The notes under the pieces were generated by a model. That model was not told the DNA's origin. It was given only the letters and a program-made list of their open reading frames with translations, and did not search any database. From a virus (Duplodnaviria; Caudoviricetes): a stretch of 64,000 nt of DNA. Location of the stretch: IMG/VR virus record IMGVR_UViG_3300036797_000054, positions 58,745-122,744 of that record, one strand, 5' to 3'. How positions within the stretch are numbered: the first letter of the stretch is position 1; each line of letters opens with the position of its first letter. This document shows, piece after piece, positions 9,299 to 59,649 of this stretch. Made by a program: the position numbers and the translations under genes.

Positions 9299-9365
9299 AG
9301 GGATCAACGGTGTGCACGCCGCCCTCCCCGTACACGGTGTCCGCGTGCGACCGTAGGGTCCGCCC

Positions 9366-9983
9366 ATGCCGCTGCTGGCGCAGCAGGAGTTGATCGAGGT
9401 AGCACCCGAGCGGCACGTCGTCGTGCCCTCGGCGCTGCGCGACGTGGTGGGCTGGTGGGGCATCGACGTGAGCACGCGCCGCTACAACGTCGGCTACGTC
9501 ACCCAGTCGATGGACCGCGGTGTGCACAGCGTGCGCCTTGGCGAGGCGAACGACAACGTGGGCGAGCGGCTCACACGCTTTGCTCGCCAACTGCGGCTGT
9601 TGCTCCAGACGATGCTCGGCGAGGGCATCGCGCCGCCCGCGGTCGTGTTCGTGGAGCATCCCGCGGGCAAGAACGTCGAGCCGGTGCTGTGGTACGCCGT
9701 CGGCACCGCCACGCAGGTCGCCTACGAGACGATCGCCGACAGCTACGGCTACGTGCCGCGCGTTGAGACGATCCCGCCGAGCTCGTGGAAGCTGAAAGCT
9801 GTCGGCCGCGGCAACCTGCCCAAGCCCAAGCGCGAGCGCGGCAAGCCGCGCCCCGAGCTCGACGCCTATCCGGTCTGGCGATGGGCGCGCACGCTCGGCC
9901 TCGCTGAGAATGCGAGCTGGGACGACGCCGATGCCTACGGGATCGCCGAGGCGGCGCGCAGGACAATAGGCATCGCGCCTTAG
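9366..9983 (+). CDS. RuvC-like Holliday junction resolvase
   Basis: GIDVST, VFVEHP, PSSWK and DDADAYGIA acidic motifs. Confidence 0.8.
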   Translation: MPLLAQQELIEVAPERHVVVPSALRDVVGWWGIDVSTRRYNVGYVTQSMDRGVHSVRLGEANDNVGERLTRFARQLRLLLQTMLGEGIAPPAVVFVEHPAGKNVEPVLWYAVGTATQVAYETIADSYGYVPRVETIPPSSWKLKAVGRGNLPKPKRERGKPRPELDAYPVWRWARTLGLAENASWDDADAYGIAEAARRTIGIAP

Positions 9984-9993
9984 CCTCTTCTGC

Positions 9994-10197
9994 ATGACCT
10001 CTCAACGTCCAGCGTTCGGCTCGCTCACGGGCTTGCGCGATCAGGGACTGCCGATGAACATGCGCCCGCAAGACGTGCCCAACGCCGACTTTCTCGGCGC
10101 AGGCACACCCGAGGAACAGGCACAGGCCCAGCGCGACGAAGCTGCCGTCGCCGCGCTGCCGCCCACGCGCATGATCATCGAGTCGCACCTGCCCTAA
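9994..10197 (+). CDS. small hypothetical protein, probably leaderless
   Basis: TAGCCT-N7-ATG. Confidence 0.5.
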   Translation: MTSQRPAFGSLTGLRDQGLPMNMRPQDVPNADFLGAGTPEEQAQAQRDEAAVAALPPTRMIIESHLP

Positions 10198-12014: not shown

Positions 12015-12448
12015 TCTCGAACGTCGAGTGGACGTATGAGCCGACGACGCAGCGGTGGGGCGCGTGCGTCGTCGGTCCTCCCGACCGTCACTTGACGATC
12101 GCGTGGGATGGGGGCGACCACGCGCTCTACCTCAGCGTGCGCGTCGAGGCGACGGCCAACGTCGAGGGCAGCAGCGAAAGCGTCTACAGCGCGCCGCTTT
12201 CGCTGCTGGCGGCGACGCTGCTGCTGCCGCGCGAGGAGCACGGCCAACTGCTGGAGATCGTGTCTGCGGCGTTGGTGGAGCTGCGCGACATGGGCATCGT
12301 GGCGAACGTGCAGCAGGTGCTCGCCAACTCGATCGAGCCGTGGCCGAAGCCCGCGGTCGCGGGCCAGAGGATGCAGGCTGCGGCCGAGACGATGCCGCAC
12401 GTCGAACGACTGGCGCTCGACGTAGCGGCTGCGGGAGCGTGGGGGTGA
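12011..12448 (+). CDS. hypothetical protein
   Basis: ATGA-coupled ORF. Confidence 0.55.
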   Translation: MISNVEWTYEPTTQRWGACVVGPPDRHLTIAWDGGDHALYLSVRVEATANVEGSSESVYSAPLSLLAATLLLPREEHGQLLEIVSAALVELRDMGIVANVQQVLANSIEPWPKPAVAGQRMQAAAETMPHVERLALDVAAAGAWG

Positions 12449-12727
12449 TGGAGTGTCATTAGAGTGTCGCTACGTCGCCGCCGAGACAGTCCGTGCAGCC
12501 GAGCCGCAGACGCCGTTGGAGAAGCTGCGCGTGTGGTGTGAGGAGAACATCGCTATGACTCCGTGGAACGAGCACACGGTCGAGCTGCTGCTAGCTAGCG
12601 TACGTGGAGAGGGGCGACGGCTCGGGGTCATGTGCTCGCCTGCAATGGAGCGCATAGACGGCCAGCACATACTCGTGCTCAACCCCTGGCCGGATCAGCC
12701 GCTGGTGTTCGACGGCGAGGGTGCCTG

Positions 12728-13384
12728 ATGTATGGCGACGCCGCTTATCGCTTGCATCACACCGTTGATCCAAAGACGCGCTATCCGTTTGTGTGGCCTG
12801 CGGTCAAGGACGAAGTGCGCGCGTTTGCGAAGCATCGCTGTATCCGCTGTGGCCATCCATACCGCGTAGGCCAGGAGACGTTTTGGTCCGAGCCCGCGCC
12901 CAAGGACACCGTGCAGGAGACGGCGGCGCTTTCGCTGTTCGATGCGGAGCCCACGGACGAGCCGCGCGTCAAGCGCGAACGTCCCGTGCACTGGTCGCCT
13001 TGCGACGAGCACTGCACGCATAGCGGCCTAATTCGCGTGCGGGAAATCGGCGGGGAGTGGCAGGTCTACGACGGCGACGCCGGGCCGCTGACGGTGCTCA
13101 ACAGCGTGGAGAAGCAGGCCGCGTGGCGCATCCTCACCGTCCACCATGCCAACGGGCGCAAGGCGGACCTGCGCTGGTTCAACCTGCTGGCGCTGTGCCA
13201 GCGCTGCCATCTGAGCGTGCAGAGCCGCGTGCAGATGGAGCGCATCTACCCGTTCGAGCACACCGACTGGTTCAAGCCGTACGTGGCCGCGTTCTACGCG
13301 CTGAAGTACCTGAACCAGGAACTGGGCCGTCCCGAGGCGGAAGCGCGTCAAGACGAGCTGCTGGCGCTAGAGCGCCACGCATAG
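12728..13384 (+). CDS. HNH-domain protein
   Basis: CIRCGH...LTVHHANG.K.D....NLLALCQRCHL. Confidence 0.75.
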   Translation: MYGDAAYRLHHTVDPKTRYPFVWPAVKDEVRAFAKHRCIRCGHPYRVGQETFWSEPAPKDTVQETAALSLFDAEPTDEPRVKRERPVHWSPCDEHCTHSGLIRVREIGGEWQVYDGDAGPLTVLNSVEKQAAWRILTVHHANGRKADLRWFNLLALCQRCHLSVQSRVQMERIYPFEHTDWFKPYVAAFYALKYLNQELGRPEAEARQDELLALERHA

Positions 13385-13593: not shown

Positions 13594-13908
13594 ATGGCAA
13601 AGAGTGGCGACGGCGCGGCGAGCAGCGAGCTGCGCGAGGCGACGACCTACATCGTCTACGAGGTTGTGGAGCCGGGAGACGGCGACCTGATCGGCGAGAC
13701 GCTGGTGCGGCGCGGCGCGATCCAGGCATCGAGCTCGTCGCAGGCCGAACGCAGCTACCGCGAGAAACTGAAAAAGGAGATCGAGGAGCAGTCGAGCGCG
13801 GTCGAGCATGAGAAGGTCGAGTTCCGCTGCATCCCGATCCGCTCGGTCGATCCGGTCTACGTCGCGCAGTTCGCTCAGGAAACGCGCGTCACATCCAGTA
13901 CGCGATGA
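13594..13908 (+). CDS. hypothetical protein
   Basis: Start-associated motif and GGAGG before ATG 13594. Confidence 0.65.
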   Translation: MAKSGDGAASSELREATTYIVYEVVEPGDGDLIGETLVRRGAIQASSSSQAERSYREKLKKEIEEQSSAVEHEKVEFRCIPIRSVDPVYVAQFAQETRVTSSTR

Positions 13909-23899: not shown

Positions 23900-24253
23900 G
23901 GCCGCGCCCGCATACCACTGGGATACCGATGGGCTACTCGCTGGAGCGATCAGAGTCAGCGACAGCGTGGGAGCTGCGCACCGCATGGGCCAAGCACAAG
24001 CCGGTCCGCCTCGTGCTCTCCGAGCGCTGCACCGATGAGGACGAGCGGCCGCTAGGCACCGTCGAGGGCCGCGTGCGGCGCGTGGCCGTGACCAACGCGT
24101 TTGTGCTGCTCGGCGACGAGCACGACGAGTTGCTGATGGTGCCGATGATTGACGTGCTCGGCATCGGCTATCCCTAGCCGCTTCGTCTCATAGGCTGCTG
24201 CACATGGGTCACTACATGGCCGGTGTGCACGACATCGAGGCGGTGCGCGCGCG

Positions 24254-25882
24254 ATGAGGATCATTCAAGGTGACTGCATCGAGCAGATGCGCGCGATGGA
24301 GGAGTGCTCGATCGACGCGATCGTTTGCGACCCGCCGTACGGCATCGGCTTCATGGGGCATGAGTGGGATCAGCCGGGCGCGCATGGCGCAGATCGAGCA
24401 AAGGAAGCGCCGTCGATGGCGCGTACCGGCCGTGATCACAGGCTCGGCCGCGAGCGTGGCGGCGCGATGGTCGCGGGACAGTACGACCTCTCTCTCTCCG
24501 CTAACCAGCGCTTTCAGTCGTGGTGCGAGACGTGGGCGCGAGAGGCCCTGCGAGTCCTGAAGCCCGGCGGCCACATGCTCGTCTGCGGAGGCACGCGCAC
24601 CTTCCACCGGATGACGAGCGGGATCGAGGACGCGGGCTTCGAGATCCGCGACTGCCTGAGCTGGCTCTACGGCTCGGGCTTCCCGAAGTCACTGAACGTG
24701 AGCAAGGCGATCGACAAGGCTGCGGGTGCCGAGCGCGGCGCGGGGGTGCAACGCTTGGCACCGGTAGAGGGCGATGACACCGGAATCTACGGGGAAGGCA
24801 ACGGCAACCGCCTCTGCGAGACATGCGGCAAGTTCACGTTCTCGGCCGACCCGTGTGTCTGCTCGCGGGACGGCGGCCCAGCAACCCCCGATGCCGAGCG
24901 CTGGCAGGGCTGGGGCACCGCGCTCAAGCCCGCATGGGAGCCGATCGTCGTCGCGCGCAAGCCGCTGAGCGGGACCGTCGCGGCGAACGTGCTTGCGCAC
25001 GGCACCGGGGCGATCAACGTGGACGGGTGCAGGATCGCGGCGATAGGCGAGAATCCGACCATCGCGCGGCGCAAAGGCTCGACGGCGCATCTGGCGAACG
25101 GGCGCGTGAGCGCAGAGACGGAGGCTGAAGGCCGAATCGTTGATCGGCGCTCGCCTGAGCAATACAGCGCTGACCGTCCAAGCGATGCGCTCGGCCGTTG
25201 GCCCGCCAACGTCGCCCTAGGCCACACCGAGGACTGCCGGATGGTGGGTACGCGAGAGGTTGCAAGCGATGGGCACTTCCCTGCGACGTGCGGCGCGTGC
25301 GGTTACGGCTCGGCGGTTGAGGACTCGAACGACGGCGGCCTGAAGTTGACGGAGGTGTGGGCCTGCGTGCCCGACTGCCCGGTGCGAATGCTCGACGAGC
25401 AGAGCGGCAAGCTTCATTCACAAGACCCTCGCACGCGAGCGAGCCGATCAAAGACCGTAGGCGTCACGGGGATGGGAACAGGGGCGAGCGTGGAGTACGC
25501 AGACAGGGGCGGCGCATCCCGCTTCTTCTACTGCGCCAAGGCATCGCGTGCTGAGCGCAACGCTGGCCGCGACGCCCTCACGCGCAACACGCACCCGACC
25601 GTGAAGCCCGTCGATCTGATGCGCTGGCTCGTGCGGCTGGTGACGCCGCCAGGAGGCGTCGTGCTCGACCCATTCGCCGGTAGCGGCACGACCGGCTGCG
25701 CCGCCGTGCAGGAAGATTTCGAGTTCATCGGCATAGAGCGCGAGGAGGAGTACGTGAAGATCGCTGAGTCACGGATCGCGTGGTGGAGCGACAATCGCGC
25801 GGAGAGTGTGAAGGTCTCGCTCAAGCGCAGCCGCGCCAAGCAGGTTGCGCCCGAATCGGCCGAACAGCTCACGTTGGACTAG
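24254..25882 (+). CDS. N6/N4 DNA methyltransferase (beta class)
   Basis: GDC...DPPY, YGSGFPKS, GWGTALKPAWEP, HPTVKP, VLDPFAGSGTT. Confidence 0.92.
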   Translation: MRIIQGDCIEQMRAMEECSIDAIVCDPPYGIGFMGHEWDQPGAHGADRAKEAPSMARTGRDHRLGRERGGAMVAGQYDLSLSANQRFQSWCETWAREALRVLKPGGHMLVCGGTRTFHRMTSGIEDAGFEIRDCLSWLYGSGFPKSLNVSKAIDKAAGAERGAGVQRLAPVEGDDTGIYGEGNGNRLCETCGKFTFSADPCVCSRDGGPATPDAERWQGWGTALKPAWEPIVVARKPLSGTVAANVLAHGTGAINVDGCRIAAIGENPTIARRKGSTAHLANGRVSAETEAEGRIVDRRSPEQYSADRPSDALGRWPANVALGHTEDCRMVGTREVASDGHFPATCGACGYGSAVEDSNDGGLKLTEVWACVPDCPVRMLDEQSGKLHSQDPRTRASRSKTVGVTGMGTGASVEYADRGGASRFFYCAKASRAERNAGRDALTRNTHPTVKPVDLMRWLVRLVTPPGGVVLDPFAGSGTTGCAAVQEDFEFIGIEREEEYVKIAESRIAWWSDNRAESVKVSLKRSRAKQVAPESAEQLTLD

Positions 25883-28247: not shown

Positions 28248-28598
28248 ATGGACGGGGAACGGGATATCGAGCCGCTGCTGAGCTGCAACTGCGCGGAGCA
28301 CCGGGCGCTCGCCAAGCTGCCAGCGGACGAGCGCGACGTGGTGACGCGGTTGCCCTACAAGCGCGAGGCGTCGCTGCCGCCCGGTCCTACGAGGCTGACG
28401 CGCGAGGAGGTCAAGGAGAACCAGCGCCACCGGCTCGTGACGGCCATGGCGGAGTCCTGCCGTCGGTTCGGGTTGCCGCATACCTCGGTGCAGGACGTGG
28501 TAGAGCTTTCGGGCGTGGGCCGACGCGCGTTCTATGAGCTGTATGCGGACCTGCACGACTGCTTCGAAGATGCGGTGCGTGTAGCCCGCGAGGCGTGA
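28248..28598 (+). CDS. TetR-family HTH domain-only protein
   Basis: QRHRLVTAMAE.....G...TSVQDVVELSGVGRRAFYELYAD..DCF; ends right after the DNA-binding domain. Confidence 0.75.
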   Translation: MDGERDIEPLLSCNCAEHRALAKLPADERDVVTRLPYKREASLPPGPTRLTREEVKENQRHRLVTAMAESCRRFGLPHTSVQDVVELSGVGRRAFYELYADLHDCFEDAVRVAREA

Positions 28599-29092
28599 AC
28601 CGCGTACGTACGCAGCGCCAGGCGGAAGCGATCGCCGCGGCGCTGGACTACATCCCTGATCGGCTGCTGCCGTTGACGGGCTGCGACATCTTCTGCGCTG
28701 ATCCCTGGTTTGCTGGAGTACATGATCTGCGTGAGGCCGATAACGGCGAAACCGTCGAGCTGCGTGCTCACGCAGTAAATGAGAGCATTACGCGTGATCG
28801 CAGGCGCGTCATCTGCATTCCTGAAGAGGTCGAGGTGGTGACGGTCCTGCACGAGATGGCGCACATCATCGATTACACGCTGTGGGACCGCACCGGTGGT
28901 CGTCATCTGCCCCGCATGGAGCCGATCAATGCCTACGCTGAAAACTATTACGGCGAGGCGTTCGCGGAATCTTTCGTGCAGTGGCTCTACGGCGCGGAGA
29001 TGGTCAACAAGCTGCTGGTCGAGCGCCCGCACATGTGGGATCGCTGGAGCCGCGAGAACGACGAGTGGTGGGATCGTCTGCTGCTGCAATAG
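28595..29092 (+). CDS. zincin-like metallopeptidase
   Basis: VLHEMAHIID...YA.....EAFAESF. Confidence 0.7.
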   Translation: MNRVRTQRQAEAIAAALDYIPDRLLPLTGCDIFCADPWFAGVHDLREADNGETVELRAHAVNESITRDRRRVICIPEEVEVVTVLHEMAHIIDYTLWDRTGGRHLPRMEPINAYAENYYGEAFAESFVQWLYGAEMVNKLLVERPHMWDRWSRENDEWWDRLLLQ

Positions 29093-29123
29093 AACGCCCG
29101 ACTAGCGCGGTAGCCTCTTCTGC

Positions 29124-29192
29124 ATGGCGTTGATCGTTCGCCAGCGGACGTGGGGATGGTCGCGGACGTGGGAATGGTCGCGCCAGGCGTAG
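29124..29192 (+). CDS. leaderless 22-aa Trp-rich mini-ORF (MALIVRQRTWGWSRTWEWSRQA)
   Basis: TAGCCT-N7-ATG, identical for 16 nt to the start at 9981; in-frame 18-nt tandem repeat. Confidence 0.45.
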   Translation: MALIVRQRTWGWSRTWEWSRQA

Positions 29193-29273
29193 CCGCCGGA
29201 GGTCGCCCGTTCAAGCCGGGCCGCGCGAGCACATCGCGCGTAGCTCAGTTGGTAGAGCACCGGCGGCTGCGCC
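29186..29273 (+). ncRNA. circularly permuted tRNA-like RNA (YrlA/Y-RNA-like topology)
   Basis: Order: 14-bp stem 5' strand, AGGTC, T-arm GCCCG-TTCAAGC-CGGGC, acceptor CGCGCGA-gcaca-TCGCGCG, TA, D-arm GCTC-AGTTGGTA-GAGC, A, 14-bp stem 3' strand. Confidence 0.85.
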
Positions 29274-29303
29274 GCGCGCTACACTGCCGCCGCTGCTGAT
29301 CGC

Positions 29304-29392
29304 GCGCCCGTAGCTCAGTGGAGAGCACCGTCCCGTTGGCTCCGAAGGCCGCGAAAGGCGGAGGTCGCAAGTGTCGAGGCTTGCCGGGCGCA
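29304..29392 (+). ncRNA. tRNA-like RNA with 24-nt anticodon-loop region and 8-nt T-loop
   Basis: Perfect 7-bp acceptor GCGCCCG/CGGGCGC, D-stem GCTC/GAGC, CCGTC/GGCGG stem, AGGTC, T-stem GCAAG/CTTGC. Confidence 0.75.
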
Positions 29393-29440
29393 TTGACAGC
29401 TTCACTCGTTATGCTGCGGCGCGTGCATCGCACACCGCTC

Positions 29441-29536: not shown

Positions 29537-29581
29537 TCCCCCGTGACGGTGGCGGCCTTGGATCTCTGCCGTCACGGGGGA
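29537..29581 (+). promoter_or_regulatory. 16-bp hairpin between the tRNA 3' end and the pth2 RBS
   Basis: TCCCCCGTGACGGTGG/CTGCCGTCACGGGGGA; 3' arm overlaps GGAGG. Confidence 0.65.
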
Positions 29582-29588
29582 GGGGTCG

Positions 29589-29969
29589 ATGCCTGACCCG
29601 ACGATCCCCATCGTCTACATCGTGTTCAACGGGCCGCTCGGCATGTCGCCGGGCAAGATGACGGCGCAGGCGTTCCAGCTCGCCGAGCGTCTGTTTCGAG
29701 CGGCCGATTCCTACGACGTGCCGATGGGAGAGCGCGTTGACCACCTACAGCGGGTAGGCGCGTGGCGCAAGCACACGACGACGATCACGCGCGTCGCCAA
29801 GACGCCGACGATGTGGGAGCGCGTCAAGGCCGAGGTCGAGGGCGTCGTCATGGTGGACGAGGGCTACACCGAGGTCGAGCCGGGCAGCGAGACGTGCTTC
29901 GCGTCGTGGCCGATGCTGGTGGGCGACGCGCCGAAAATCCTCTCGAACGCCAAGGTGCCGCTGCTGTAG
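29589..29969 (+). CDS. peptidyl-tRNA hydrolase, Pth2 family
   Basis: MSPGKMTAQA...W...DEGYTEVEPGSETC matches the Pth2 MxxGKxxAQ and DxGxT motifs. Confidence 0.85.
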   Translation: MPDPTIPIVYIVFNGPLGMSPGKMTAQAFQLAERLFRAADSYDVPMGERVDHLQRVGAWRKHTTTITRVAKTPTMWERVKAEVEGVVMVDEGYTEVEPGSETCFASWPMLVGDAPKILSNAKVPLL

Positions 29970-30197
29970 TGTTGCTTCTCGTGATCCGCCGAGCCCGTGA
30001 ATACCGTCGCCGCCGCCGCTTGAGAAGGGTCGTGGCCGTAGTGGTAGAGATCAGCCAGACGTTCGATCCGCATGGAACGAACACTGCGCTGAATAAGGTC
30101 CTCACGCGCATCGTGCTGGAGCGCATGTAGCGGGCTACACGGTACGGTGTAGGCGACGCCGCCTGATGGCGTTGACGGCGCGGGTAGACTACCGCGC

Positions 30198-58332: not shown

Positions 58333-59649
58333 GTGAGCGTGAGAACGATGAAAGTCGCGATCCGTGGCGACGTGGATGAGAAGGCGATCGCGCAGCTCGA
58401 ACGCTGCGCCCGCGCTGGCCGCGCCCCGCTGGCCGCGCAGATGGCCGACGGGCACTACGGCTACTCCATGAGCATCGGGGGGGTGATCGGCTTCCGCGAG
58501 TACGTCTCGCCGTCCTCGGTGGGCTACGACATCGGCTGCGGCAACAAGGCTGTGCTGACGAACTTGACCGTTGGCGAGATCGATGGCGACGTTGGACGCA
58601 TCATGGACGAGATCACCAAGCGCATCGACTTCGGCGGAGGGCCGGGCTACAAGCCGACTGCGGAGCGCGCCGATCATCCGGTGCTCGATGAGATCCGCGA
58701 GGCCGACTACGTGCCCCAGCGCGCGCTCGCCGAGCTCGCCGCAGCCCAGCTCGGCTCGATCGGGGGCGGCAACCACTACGTGGACCTGTTCGCCGACGAG
58801 CACGGCCGCGTGTGGGTCGGCGTGCACTTCGGCTCGCGCGGCTTCGGCCACCGCACCGCCGAGGAATTCCTGACGCTCGGCAAGACGCTCGACATCAACC
58901 GCGAGAACAGCGAGGACATGGACTCGCCTCCGACGCTGCTGCCCATCGAGTCCGGCCTGGGACAGTCCTACGTCGCGGCGATGGAGCTCGCAGGGCGCTA
59001 CGCCTACGCCGGTCGCGATGTTGCGGTCCAGCGCGTGCTCGGCATCCTCGGGGCCGAACCGCTGCACGAGGTCCACAACCACCACAACTACGCCTGGCAC
59101 GAGCAGCACGAAACCGACACCGGCCTGGAGATGCTGTGGGTCGTGCGCAAGGGCGCGACGCCAGCGTTCCCAGGGCAGGAAGGCTTCGTGGGCGCGACCA
59201 TGGGCGAGCCGAGTGTGATCCTCGCTGGCAAGGGCGGCCCGGCCGCATCCATGCTGATGTTCTCCACCGTGCATGGCGCTGGCCGCGTGATGAGCCGTAC
59301 GCGCGCCGCGGGTAAAACGCGCAAGCGCTGGACGTGCAACACTCGCGACTGCAACTGGTTCCAGCCGCCGCGAACGCACAAGCCCGAGGCGTGCCCGTCC
59401 TGCGGCAACACGAGCATGACCAAGCGCTTCGTGAAAATCAGCGAGGGCGAGATCGACTGGTCGCAGACGCTGGCCGGTCTGCGCGCGAGCGGCATCGAGC
59501 TGCGCGGCGGCGCGGCCGACGAGGCACCCCTGGCCTACAAGCGCCTCGATCAGGTGCTCGACGCCCACTCCGACACGATCGAGATCCTGCACACACTGAC
59601 GCCTCTCGGCGTGGCGATGGCGGGTTCGGAGATCGCGGCCGATGACTGA
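58333..59649 (+). CDS. rtcB: RtcB-family RNA ligase with Zn-ribbon insertion
   Basis: DGHYGY, GYDIGCG, GSIGGGNHY, VHFGSRG, HNHHN, RKGAT, HGAGR, DEAPLAYK. Confidence 0.95.
   Translation: MSVRTMKVAIRGDVDEKAIAQLERCARAGRAPLAAQMADGHYGYSMSIGGVIGFREYVSPSSVGYDIGCGNKAVLTNLTVGEIDGDVGRIMDEITKRIDFGGGPGYKPTAERADHPVLDEIREADYVPQRALAELAAAQLGSIGGGNHYVDLFADEHGRVWVGVHFGSRGFGHRTAEEFLTLGKTLDINRENSEDMDSPPTLLPIESGLGQSYVAAMELAGRYAYAGRDVAVQRVLGILGAEPLHEVHNHHNYAWHEQHETDTGLEMLWVVRKGATPAFPGQEGFVGATMGEPSVILAGKGGPAASMLMFSTVHGAGRVMSRTRAAGKTRKRWTCNTRDCNWFQPPRTHKPEACPSCGNTSMTKRFVKISEGEIDWSQTLAGLRASGIELRGGAADEAPLAYKRLDQVLDAHSDTIEILHTLTPLGVAMAGSEIAADD

Follow-up and report, generated by a model that had tools for sequence, protein, structure and literature searches.

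Is the short tryptophan-rich open reading frame (ORF) that leads into a tRNA-like RNA in a Caudoviricetes phage a translated regulator of that RNA, or an incidental product of the way in which the RNA is transcribed? The question arises at positions 29111-29192 of the 64,000-nt stretch analyzed here (the window), which is the last 64 kb of the 122,744-base IMG/VR record IMGVR_UViG_3300036797_000054. This record is ~80% complete according to the CheckV estimate, has 66-67% GC and carries nearly all of its genes on the plus strand. An earlier note on this DNA had proposed, from the ORF and the permuted tRNA-like fold into which it runs, an attenuator-like sensor of tRNA status or an mRNA-tRNA chimera topologically like two-piece tmRNA. 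The sequence facts that it reported, the leaderless promoter and the position of the stop codon within a helix all stood up to analysis; neither of the two proposed functions did. We favor, with a probability of about 0.6, a reading in which 29111-29192 comprises the promoter of a YrlA-like tRNA mimic and its structured 5' leader, the ATG coming from a duplicated 16-nt cassette and the ORF being incidental. The features on which this reading is built are as follows:

29111-29126, plus strand: 16-nt cassette (-10 hexamer, 7-nt spacer, ATG), identical to 9981-9996
29111-29116, plus strand: TAGCCT, the -10-like hexamer of a TAGNNT-type promoter, 7 nt from the ATG and with C at -1
9981-9996, plus strand: second copy of the cassette, with an ATG at 9994 that opens a 67-codon ORF
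29124-29192, plus strand: 22-codon ORF with four Trp codons, followed by TAG, encoding MALIVRQRTWGWSRTWEWSRQA; the predicted transcription start is A29124
29144-29182, plus strand: 18-nt tandem repeat, 2.2 copies, 95% match (Tandem Repeats Finder)
29125-29185, plus strand: leader hairpin of 24 bp and 61 nt, from the U of the AUG to one base before the 14-bp helix
29186-29273, plus strand: permuted, anticodon-less tRNA-like domain (YrlA-like), with a minimum free energy (MFE) of -58.4 kcal/mol and z -6.59
29186-29199 with 29260-29273, plus strand: 14-bp closing helix of this domain, uninterrupted and GC-rich, in place of the anticodon arm
29200-29204, 29205-29221 and 29243-29258, plus strand: variable loop, T arm and D arm of its fold
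29222-29228 with 29234-29240, plus strand: 7-bp acceptor-like stem, closed by the 5-nt loop GCACA

We examined the cassette in the window and in the rest of the record. Two exact copies of the 16-mer TAGCCTCTTCTGCATG are present in the window, one at 9981 and one at 29111, both on the plus strand, where 0.03 copies are expected by chance; the window holds no further copy with up to two mismatches, and the whole 122.7-kb record holds these two copies and no more. The copy at 9981 does start another ORF, as had been claimed, and the 67 codons opened by ATG 9994 display a coding-like G/C skew (G or C at 34 of 66 second codon positions, GC2, and at 52 of 66 third positions, GC3; p 0.0009). A point missed by the earlier note is that the TAG of this copy doubles as the stop codon of the preceding gene, 9366-9983. 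The ATG at 29124 would thus have been carried in with a promoter and start cassette that serves a real gene at 9994.

In actinobacteria, leaderless genes have a -10 element TANNNT followed, after 6-7 nt, by an RTG at +1 (PMC4633059). TAGCCT-N7-ATG has this architecture. On the phage, TAGNNT-N6/7-RTG is found 12 times on the plus strand and never on the minus strand, compared to 4.46 ± 2.16 (maximum 10) in dinucleotide shuffles, none of 200 of which reaches 12, and TAGNNT by itself is depleted. The spacing is likewise constrained: when spacings of 3-12 nt are compared for TANNNT-RTG, 13 and 17 plus-strand sites are counted at 6 and 7 nt, respectively, versus 2-8 at the others, and the minus strand has 0-2 sites at these two spacings. 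Most of the 12 TAGNNT-type sites coincide with borders between genes, and the ORFs that they open are long and GC-rich at third positions; those in the window are at 9354, 9981, 14358, 24191, 25920, 26479, 29111, 30185 and 33777. Two of them, 26479 and 30185, have GTTGACGRCGCGGG in common just upstream. In the loci of relatives, in which a tRNA-like gene precedes a gene for a PTH2-family peptidyl-tRNA hydrolase, a TAGNNT is present at a distance of 10-12 nt from the start of the tRNA-like gene, and this short interval contains no ORF. A scan for E. coli-type sigma-70 promoters gave no match between the upstream gene (28595-29092) and the RNAs, so that the promoter argument rests on the phage-specific motif statistics. 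On these statistics and on the TAGNNT of the relatives, TAGCCT is likely to be the -10 element and A29124 the transcription start, transcription probably beginning at this base or beside it; the leaderless-promoter reading already made for this site is thus supported. More generally, TAGNNT-N6/7-RTG offers a concrete signal for annotating start codons in this uncultured group of high-GC phages.

The same region can be read with no promoter at 29111 at all. The RNAs would then be transcribed by readthrough from 28595-29092, the 16-mer being a remnant of recombination or of a module junction, the hairpin an element for the processing or stability of a longer precursor, and the ORF, which would be internal and has no Shine-Dalgarno site, never being translated. 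Neither a sigma-70-type promoter nor a terminator-like site separates the upstream gene from the RNAs, only 18 nt lie between the upstream stop codon and the TAGCCT, and the cassette at 9981 spans a stop-to-start gene junction; moreover, the spacer CTTCTGC is absent from the other TAGNNT sites, which fits common descent over functional constraint. The strand-specific enrichment and the spacing preference of TAGNNT-N6/7-RTG argue the other way, as do the TAGNNT that precedes the tRNA-like genes of relatives and the hairpin that starts exactly one base past the predicted transcription start. We consider readthrough unlikely, and transcription from TAGCCT is retained in what follows.

We then asked what the ORF itself contains. 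The frame 29124-29192 encodes the claimed peptide, and all four in-frame TGG codons come from the 18-nt repeat. In this phage of 67% GC, 79% of the 1,446 plus-strand ATGs open a frame that runs on for 21 or more sense codons. The G/C skew of the mini-ORF, measured with the test applied to mycobacterial short ORFs (PMC9094748), is not significant (GC2 15/21 versus GC3 18/21, p 0.23). Four TGG in 21 codons have a probability of 5e-4 if the codons are independent; with the duplication taken as one event, the two TGG of the unduplicated stretch have a probability of ~0.03, before correction for three frames. From the proportion of open ATGs, the skew test and the origin of the Trp codons in a duplication, it follows that the mini-ORF does not exceed what chance yields and that the frame bears no mark of selection. 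The frame would have stayed open for 22 codons by chance in DNA of this composition, and its four Trp codons would stem from one 18-nt duplication. In Mycobacterium tuberculosis, purifying selection is not apparent in the majority of the short ORFs that were newly detected, including those that are leaderless (PMC9094748). We also weighed, and rejected, reassignment of the TAG and readthrough into the frame from gene 28595-29092: the mini-ORF and that gene are in different frames, and TAG is a normal stop elsewhere, as in gene 9366-9983. On the reverse strand, ORFs 28987-29232 and 29102-29260 overlap the tRNA-like RNA.

Could the peptide nevertheless be functional, as a 22-residue Arg/Trp-rich micro-protein, for instance a membrane-active peptide, encoded across the start of the small RNA? 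Its start is of the leaderless type, its third-position GC is 86%, and a cationic, Trp-rich composition is like that of membrane-active peptides. No Pfam family matches the peptide, no homologue was found and the leader is absent from the relatives; the composition is explained by the duplication, the G/C skew is not significant, and the frame overlaps structured RNA throughout. We leave this explanation a very slight chance.

The RNA of the same segment is strongly structured. The 62 nt from 29124 to 29185 fold with an MFE of -34.3 kcal/mol (z -3.92), a stability equaled by none of 200 shuffles, and the leader hairpin recurs in folds of 177 and 497 nt. It pairs the U and the G of the AUG, starting at nucleotide 2 of the predicted transcript. 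The folds also place the TAG (29190-29192) in the 5' strand of the 14-bp helix, as the earlier note had it. The whole ORF thus lies within double-stranded RNA, its start codon at the foot of the first helix and its stop codon in the second. Among the 12 TAGNNT-type starts, 29124 has the most stable 62-nt start, the rest ranging from -12 to -30 kcal/mol. As the hairpin ends one base before the 14-bp helix, the two helices are predicted to be able to stack. A stable non-coding RNA is expected to have a 5'-terminal stem-loop flush with its body. With a start at A29124, the first 62 nt of the transcript would fold into such a hairpin against the closing helix of the mimic, and would probably protect or extend the 5' end of the small RNA. 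In an alternative fold, the second repeat pairs with 29274-29297; when 13 extra 5' nucleotides are included, its energy is so close to that of the first that the leader may have a choice between conformations.

We next turn to the RNA that the leader heads. YrlA RNAs, the tRNA-like Y RNAs of bacteria and phages, are defined by a permuted tRNA-like module, a 5' GNCGAA(N)G motif, a Ro60 (TROVE) gene on the same strand within about 4 kb and binding to Ro60 (Chen et al, 2014; PMC4201824). The permuted module is found in the MFE and centroid folds and in the Rfam alignment of the phage RNA. In a permissive scan, the Rfam YrlA family RF02553 matches 29177-29285 over model positions 1-114 with 41.2 bits (E 1.6e-7), under the gathering score of 69. 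Six permuted mimics from five other phage loci score 37.4-45.7 bits against the same family, and a Ro60 (TROVE) protein is encoded in three of the four searchable phage records among these loci. To obtain the five loci, viral contigs and genomes were scanned for DNA patterns, and hits were kept if their acceptor hairpin was self-complementary; a first scan, for a T loop closely before a D arm, had returned almost exclusively tightly packed tandem tRNA genes, with one true permuted mimic (L034). As these other phage mimics, mostly from Ro60-encoding phages, fall in the same range, the gathering threshold is strict for phage members, and the sub-threshold score is not evidence against YrlA membership. 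The GNCGAA(N0-1)G motif, a proposed Ro60/Rsr contact (PMC4201824), is not present in 29124-29199, where the aligned 5' strand reads GUCGCGCC, and a search of the 122.7-kb record for Ro60/TROVE (PF05731) found nothing; the gene may still be carried by the host or by the 20% of the phage genome that the record lacks. Since both the motif and a TROVE gene in the record are lacking, we describe the RNA 29186-29273, on its sequence, as YrlA-like rather than as a proven YrlA member. [quoted passage not shown] By this precedent, the same cleavage and CCA addition are conceivable for the phage mimic, as a lead and not as evidence.

As a surrogate for frame conservation among homologues, we looked in 12 other permuted mimics of phages for a frame whose stop falls in the 5' strand of the closing helix. 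None has a comparable ORF: eight lack any such frame, and the short frames of the other four are unrelated and contain no more than one Trp. On another phage contig (L237), a GOLLD RNA (12340-12824, 172 bits, above threshold) is located ~1 kb upstream of a YrlA-like permuted mimic (13792-13894, 45.7 bits) that lies inside a tRNA array; no TROVE gene was found in the L237 record, which is 28% complete.

With the leader and the mimic described, the sensor proposal can be weighed. In this proposal, the leader would be a leaderless leader peptide, and the position of the ribosome, stalled at the Trp codons or at the stop codon in the helix, would control the folding, RNase P processing or stability of the mimic. 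Several observations speak for it. TAGCCT-N7-ATG matches the leaderless pattern of the phage. In mycobacteria, a 5' RTG is enough for a leaderless start (PMC4633059), and leaderless short ORFs rich in one amino acid act as attenuators (10.1101/834739). A ribosome terminating at a stop codon within the 14-bp helix must open that helix, the extended stem between the second repeat and 29274-29297 is nearly isoenergetic, and the phage has a second leaderless mini-ORF, upstream of a methylase gene. The details, however, do not fit an attenuator. The Trp codons, all from one duplication, are arranged W-G-W and W-E-W with no two consecutive, whereas the proven mycobacterial leaderless attenuators combine consecutive sensed codons with an RNA duplex in which a ribosome-binding site further downstream is masked (bioRxiv 10.1101/834739). 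The terminator scan found no terminator-like site after the leader. No helix sequestering a ribosome-binding site under control of the leader is evident, the ribosome-binding site of PTH2 being ~400 nt downstream, and neither tRNA-Trp nor any other Trp-related gene was found in the phage. The AUG is partly buried in the -34 kcal/mol hairpin, the frame shows no significant skew, and the element is absent from the relatives that were found. Finally, a ribosome at the TAG would open the closing helix, yet the RNA can refold after its release, so that the folding model offers no obvious kinetic decision point. The attenuator-like sensor is therefore not upheld, and control by ribosome position is, in our view, improbable. 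Its most specific form, in which the leaderless AUG would recruit a 70S ribosome and translation of the Trp-rich leader into the closing helix would gate mimic folding, RNase P cleavage or CCA addition, is very unlikely. If such gating were true, the availability of a tRNA decoy or repair cofactor would be tied to the state of translation in infected cells; a leader both translated and regulatory would be the first leader peptide controlling the maturation of a non-coding tRNA mimic, which the evidence makes unlikely.

The other proposed function, a phage tmRNA-like chimera, starts from a resemblance that is real: along the gene, the ORF is followed by one helix strand, the T arm, the 3' and then the 5' strand of the acceptor stem, the D arm and the other helix strand, which is the tmRNA order circularly permuted. 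The 7-bp stem, as in the RNase P-cut and CCA-tailed YrlA of M. smegmatis (PMC4201824), and the presence of PTH2 and of the RNA ligase RtcB, pointing to translation or RNA-repair functions of the phage, are in line with it. Beyond topology, the comparison fails. ARAGORN, permuted forms included, calls no tmRNA at default settings and, at a relaxed threshold, makes only spurious calls on the opposite strand; the Rfam tmRNA families give no match up to E 10. The acceptor strands (29234-29240 and 29222-29228) form G3:C70, so that the G3:U70 pair of alanine identity is missing; the loop GCACA closes the stem and leaves no free CCA 3' end, although later processing is possible. The mini-ORF starts with an AUG at the predicted 5' end of the RNA, with no resume codon and no pseudoknot region, its peptide ends in RQA and not in a hydrophobic degradation tag, and no SmpB gene is found in the phage. 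This second function had to be given up, and we hold it barely credible.

The neighborhood of the mimic provides a further criterion, that of conservation. The mini-ORF and the tRNA-like RNAs are housed in a gene-free interval of 496 nt, and the features around them are:

28595-29092, plus strand: gene for a 165-residue HExxH-type protein, the upstream border of the gene-free interval
29304-29392, plus strand: second tRNA-like RNA (Rfam tRNA, 41.6 bits), with a tRNA-Arg-type acceptor stem, an enlarged anticodon arm and an 8-nt T loop
29441-29536, plus strand: third tRNA-like RNA (Rfam tRNA, 61.9 bits), with a 25-nt D-loop insert, missed by ARAGORN defaults
29589-29969, plus strand: PTH2-family peptidyl-tRNA hydrolase gene (PF01981, 26.7 bits, cut-off 23), with its own purine-rich ribosome-binding site
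58333-59649, plus strand: RtcB RNA ligase gene (PF01139, E 1e-62), 29 kb from the tRNA-mimic/PTH2 cluster

PTH2 has 26 homologues at 46-70% BLASTP identity, and the only named organism with one is the actinobacterium Miltoncostaea oceani. We compared thirteen loci of relatives (L066-L076, L148 and L149; L073 was left out of the Rfam scan). A tRNA-like gene is located directly upstream of PTH2 in 11 of the 13 (L066-L076), and also in L149. The acceptor stem is mostly of the tRNA-Arg type, as in 29304-29392 (GCGCCCG, discriminator A), the D-loop inserts vary, and the anticodon arms are often non-canonical, with 4-5-nt loops or large expansions; a loop CUUUCAA is common to several of these genes. 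By their sequences, the PTH2-linked tRNA-like RNAs look like non-decoding tRNA mimics. In contrast to the window, the PTH2 loci L066-L076 contain no YrlA-like element, and L148 and L149 are likewise without a YrlA match; blastn-short finds no similarity to the leader in the relatives' loci beyond the tRNA arms. A locus with this leader was found neither by protein and profile searches that used each flanking gene against collections of viruses, metagenomes and genomes, nor by pattern scans, nor by blastn against phages. A scan for the GCGCCCG acceptor family returned matches nearly all of ordinary tRNA length, none of them at a locus with PTH2, and with leader similarity that does not extend beyond the tRNA arms. 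A 24.8-kb contig of Logan SRR11834745 encodes an identical neighboring protein and has an intergenic gap of equal length. As the relatives keep the tRNA-like RNA and PTH2 without a YrlA-like RNA, these two form the conserved module, to which the YrlA-like RNA and its leader are best taken, from these sequences, as an addition specific to one lineage.

Other observations were made in these intervals. In M. oceani (CP064357.1, L148:3407-4000), the ~600 nt before the PTH2 homologue hold three pieces made of a T arm and an acceptor 3' strand, ~230-240 nt apart amid shorter repeats, which Rfam tRNA does not detect; genes for an RNA ligase, a second PTH2-like protein, HNH and RlaP lie nearby. In the window, a long GC-rich hairpin without a U tract (29538-29580) stands between the third tRNA-like RNA and PTH2, and its 3' strand overlaps the purine-rich ribosome-binding site of that gene; it may limit PTH2 translation or be a site of processing or termination. 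Two TANNNT hexamers, TACACT (29280-29285, overlapping the 3' end of the YrlA-like match) and TATGCT (29410-29415), precede the second and third tRNA-like RNAs by 18 and 25 nt, respectively, and may provide a separate promoter for each of them.

Several of the results above weigh against an incidental ORF. The collections searched contained no close relative carrying the leader, on which its conservation could be judged. The third-position GC of the mini-ORF, 86%, is the highest of the three frames, and attenuation by Cys-rich leaderless short ORFs has been proven in mycobacteria (bioRxiv 10.1101/834739). The phage clearly uses leaderless starts: a 17-codon upstream ORF (24204-24257, within 24191-24257 of the window) follows TAGGCT by 7 nt and starts with ATG, its TGA overlapping as ATGA the ATG (24254) of an N6/N4 DNA methylase gene that has no Shine-Dalgarno site, so that translation of the methylase probably depends on termination-reinitiation coupling with the short ORF. 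The TAGNNT-type start at 30185, whose first 62 nt fold with -30.3 kcal/mol, still heads a plausible gene of 148 residues; structure alone, therefore, does not exclude translation. By analogy with mycobacteria, in which a 5' RTG is sufficient, ribosomes may well load on the mini-ORF if transcription starts at A29124 and the host is similar. If the RNA begins with the AUG, spurious or "pervasive" leaderless translation of the mini-ORF is possible, with no regulatory output evident; such translation is common and mostly functionless (PMC9094748).

The mini-ORF itself is probably unimportant, and the apparent mRNA-tRNA chimera becomes a YrlA-type mimic with an added 5' hairpin and a leaderless-type promoter. 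The locus bears on whether the Y-RNA-like mimics of phages work without Ro60, as the record has no Ro60 gene but has PTH2, RtcB and two more deformed tRNA-like RNAs. The RtcB gene fits an RNA-repair or translation-rescue toolkit, and the three deformed tRNA-like RNAs with PTH2 and RtcB are a more interesting object than the mini-ORF.

How does the locus compare with known systems? With mycobacterial leaderless short ORFs (Shell et al, 2015, PMC4633059; 10.1101/834739; Smith et al, 2022, PMC9094748), it shares the TANNNT, the 6-7 nt and the RTG at the predicted +1, as well as a short frame, rich in a single amino acid, with which a transcript of several genes begins. The polycysteine attenuators among them (Canestrari et al, 10.1101/834739) differ in that their sensed codons are consecutive, whereas Trp alternates with other residues here, and in that they control genes of the matching pathway through a duplex sequestering the ribosome-binding site, whereas a non-coding RNA follows here and no such duplex is evident. 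With trpL-type attenuators, the phage leader has in common a short Trp-containing leader ORF that overlaps RNA capable of alternative helices; it lacks tandem Trp codons, a U-tract terminator hairpin and downstream genes for Trp biosynthesis or tRNA-Trp. The two-piece (permuted) tmRNA of alphaproteobacteria and others also links a permuted tRNA-like domain to a short reading frame, but the phage RNA fails all tested hallmarks of it (G3:U70, pseudoknots, resume codon, tag ending, detection by ARAGORN and Rfam).

YrlA is compared last. The phage RNA differs from it in reading GUCGCG where GNCGAA(N)G is expected, in its uninterrupted 14-bp GC-rich closing stem and added 61-nt 5' hairpin, and in its neighbors, which are two other deformed tRNA-like RNAs and PTH2 and not rsr. 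The likenesses concern the whole body of the RNA: the T arm, closed acceptor-like stem-loop and D arm are permuted in the same way, and the 5' and 3' strands form a helix where a tRNA has its anticodon stem; the nucleotides of the tRNA tertiary contacts are kept (U8, A14, G15:C48, G18, G19, T54-A58, G53:C61); and the acceptor-like stem has 7 bp, the same as in the RNase P-cleaved YrlA of M. smegmatis. An RtcB gene is present in the phage genome as well, and rsr-yrlA-rtcBA is the corresponding neighborhood in Salmonella.

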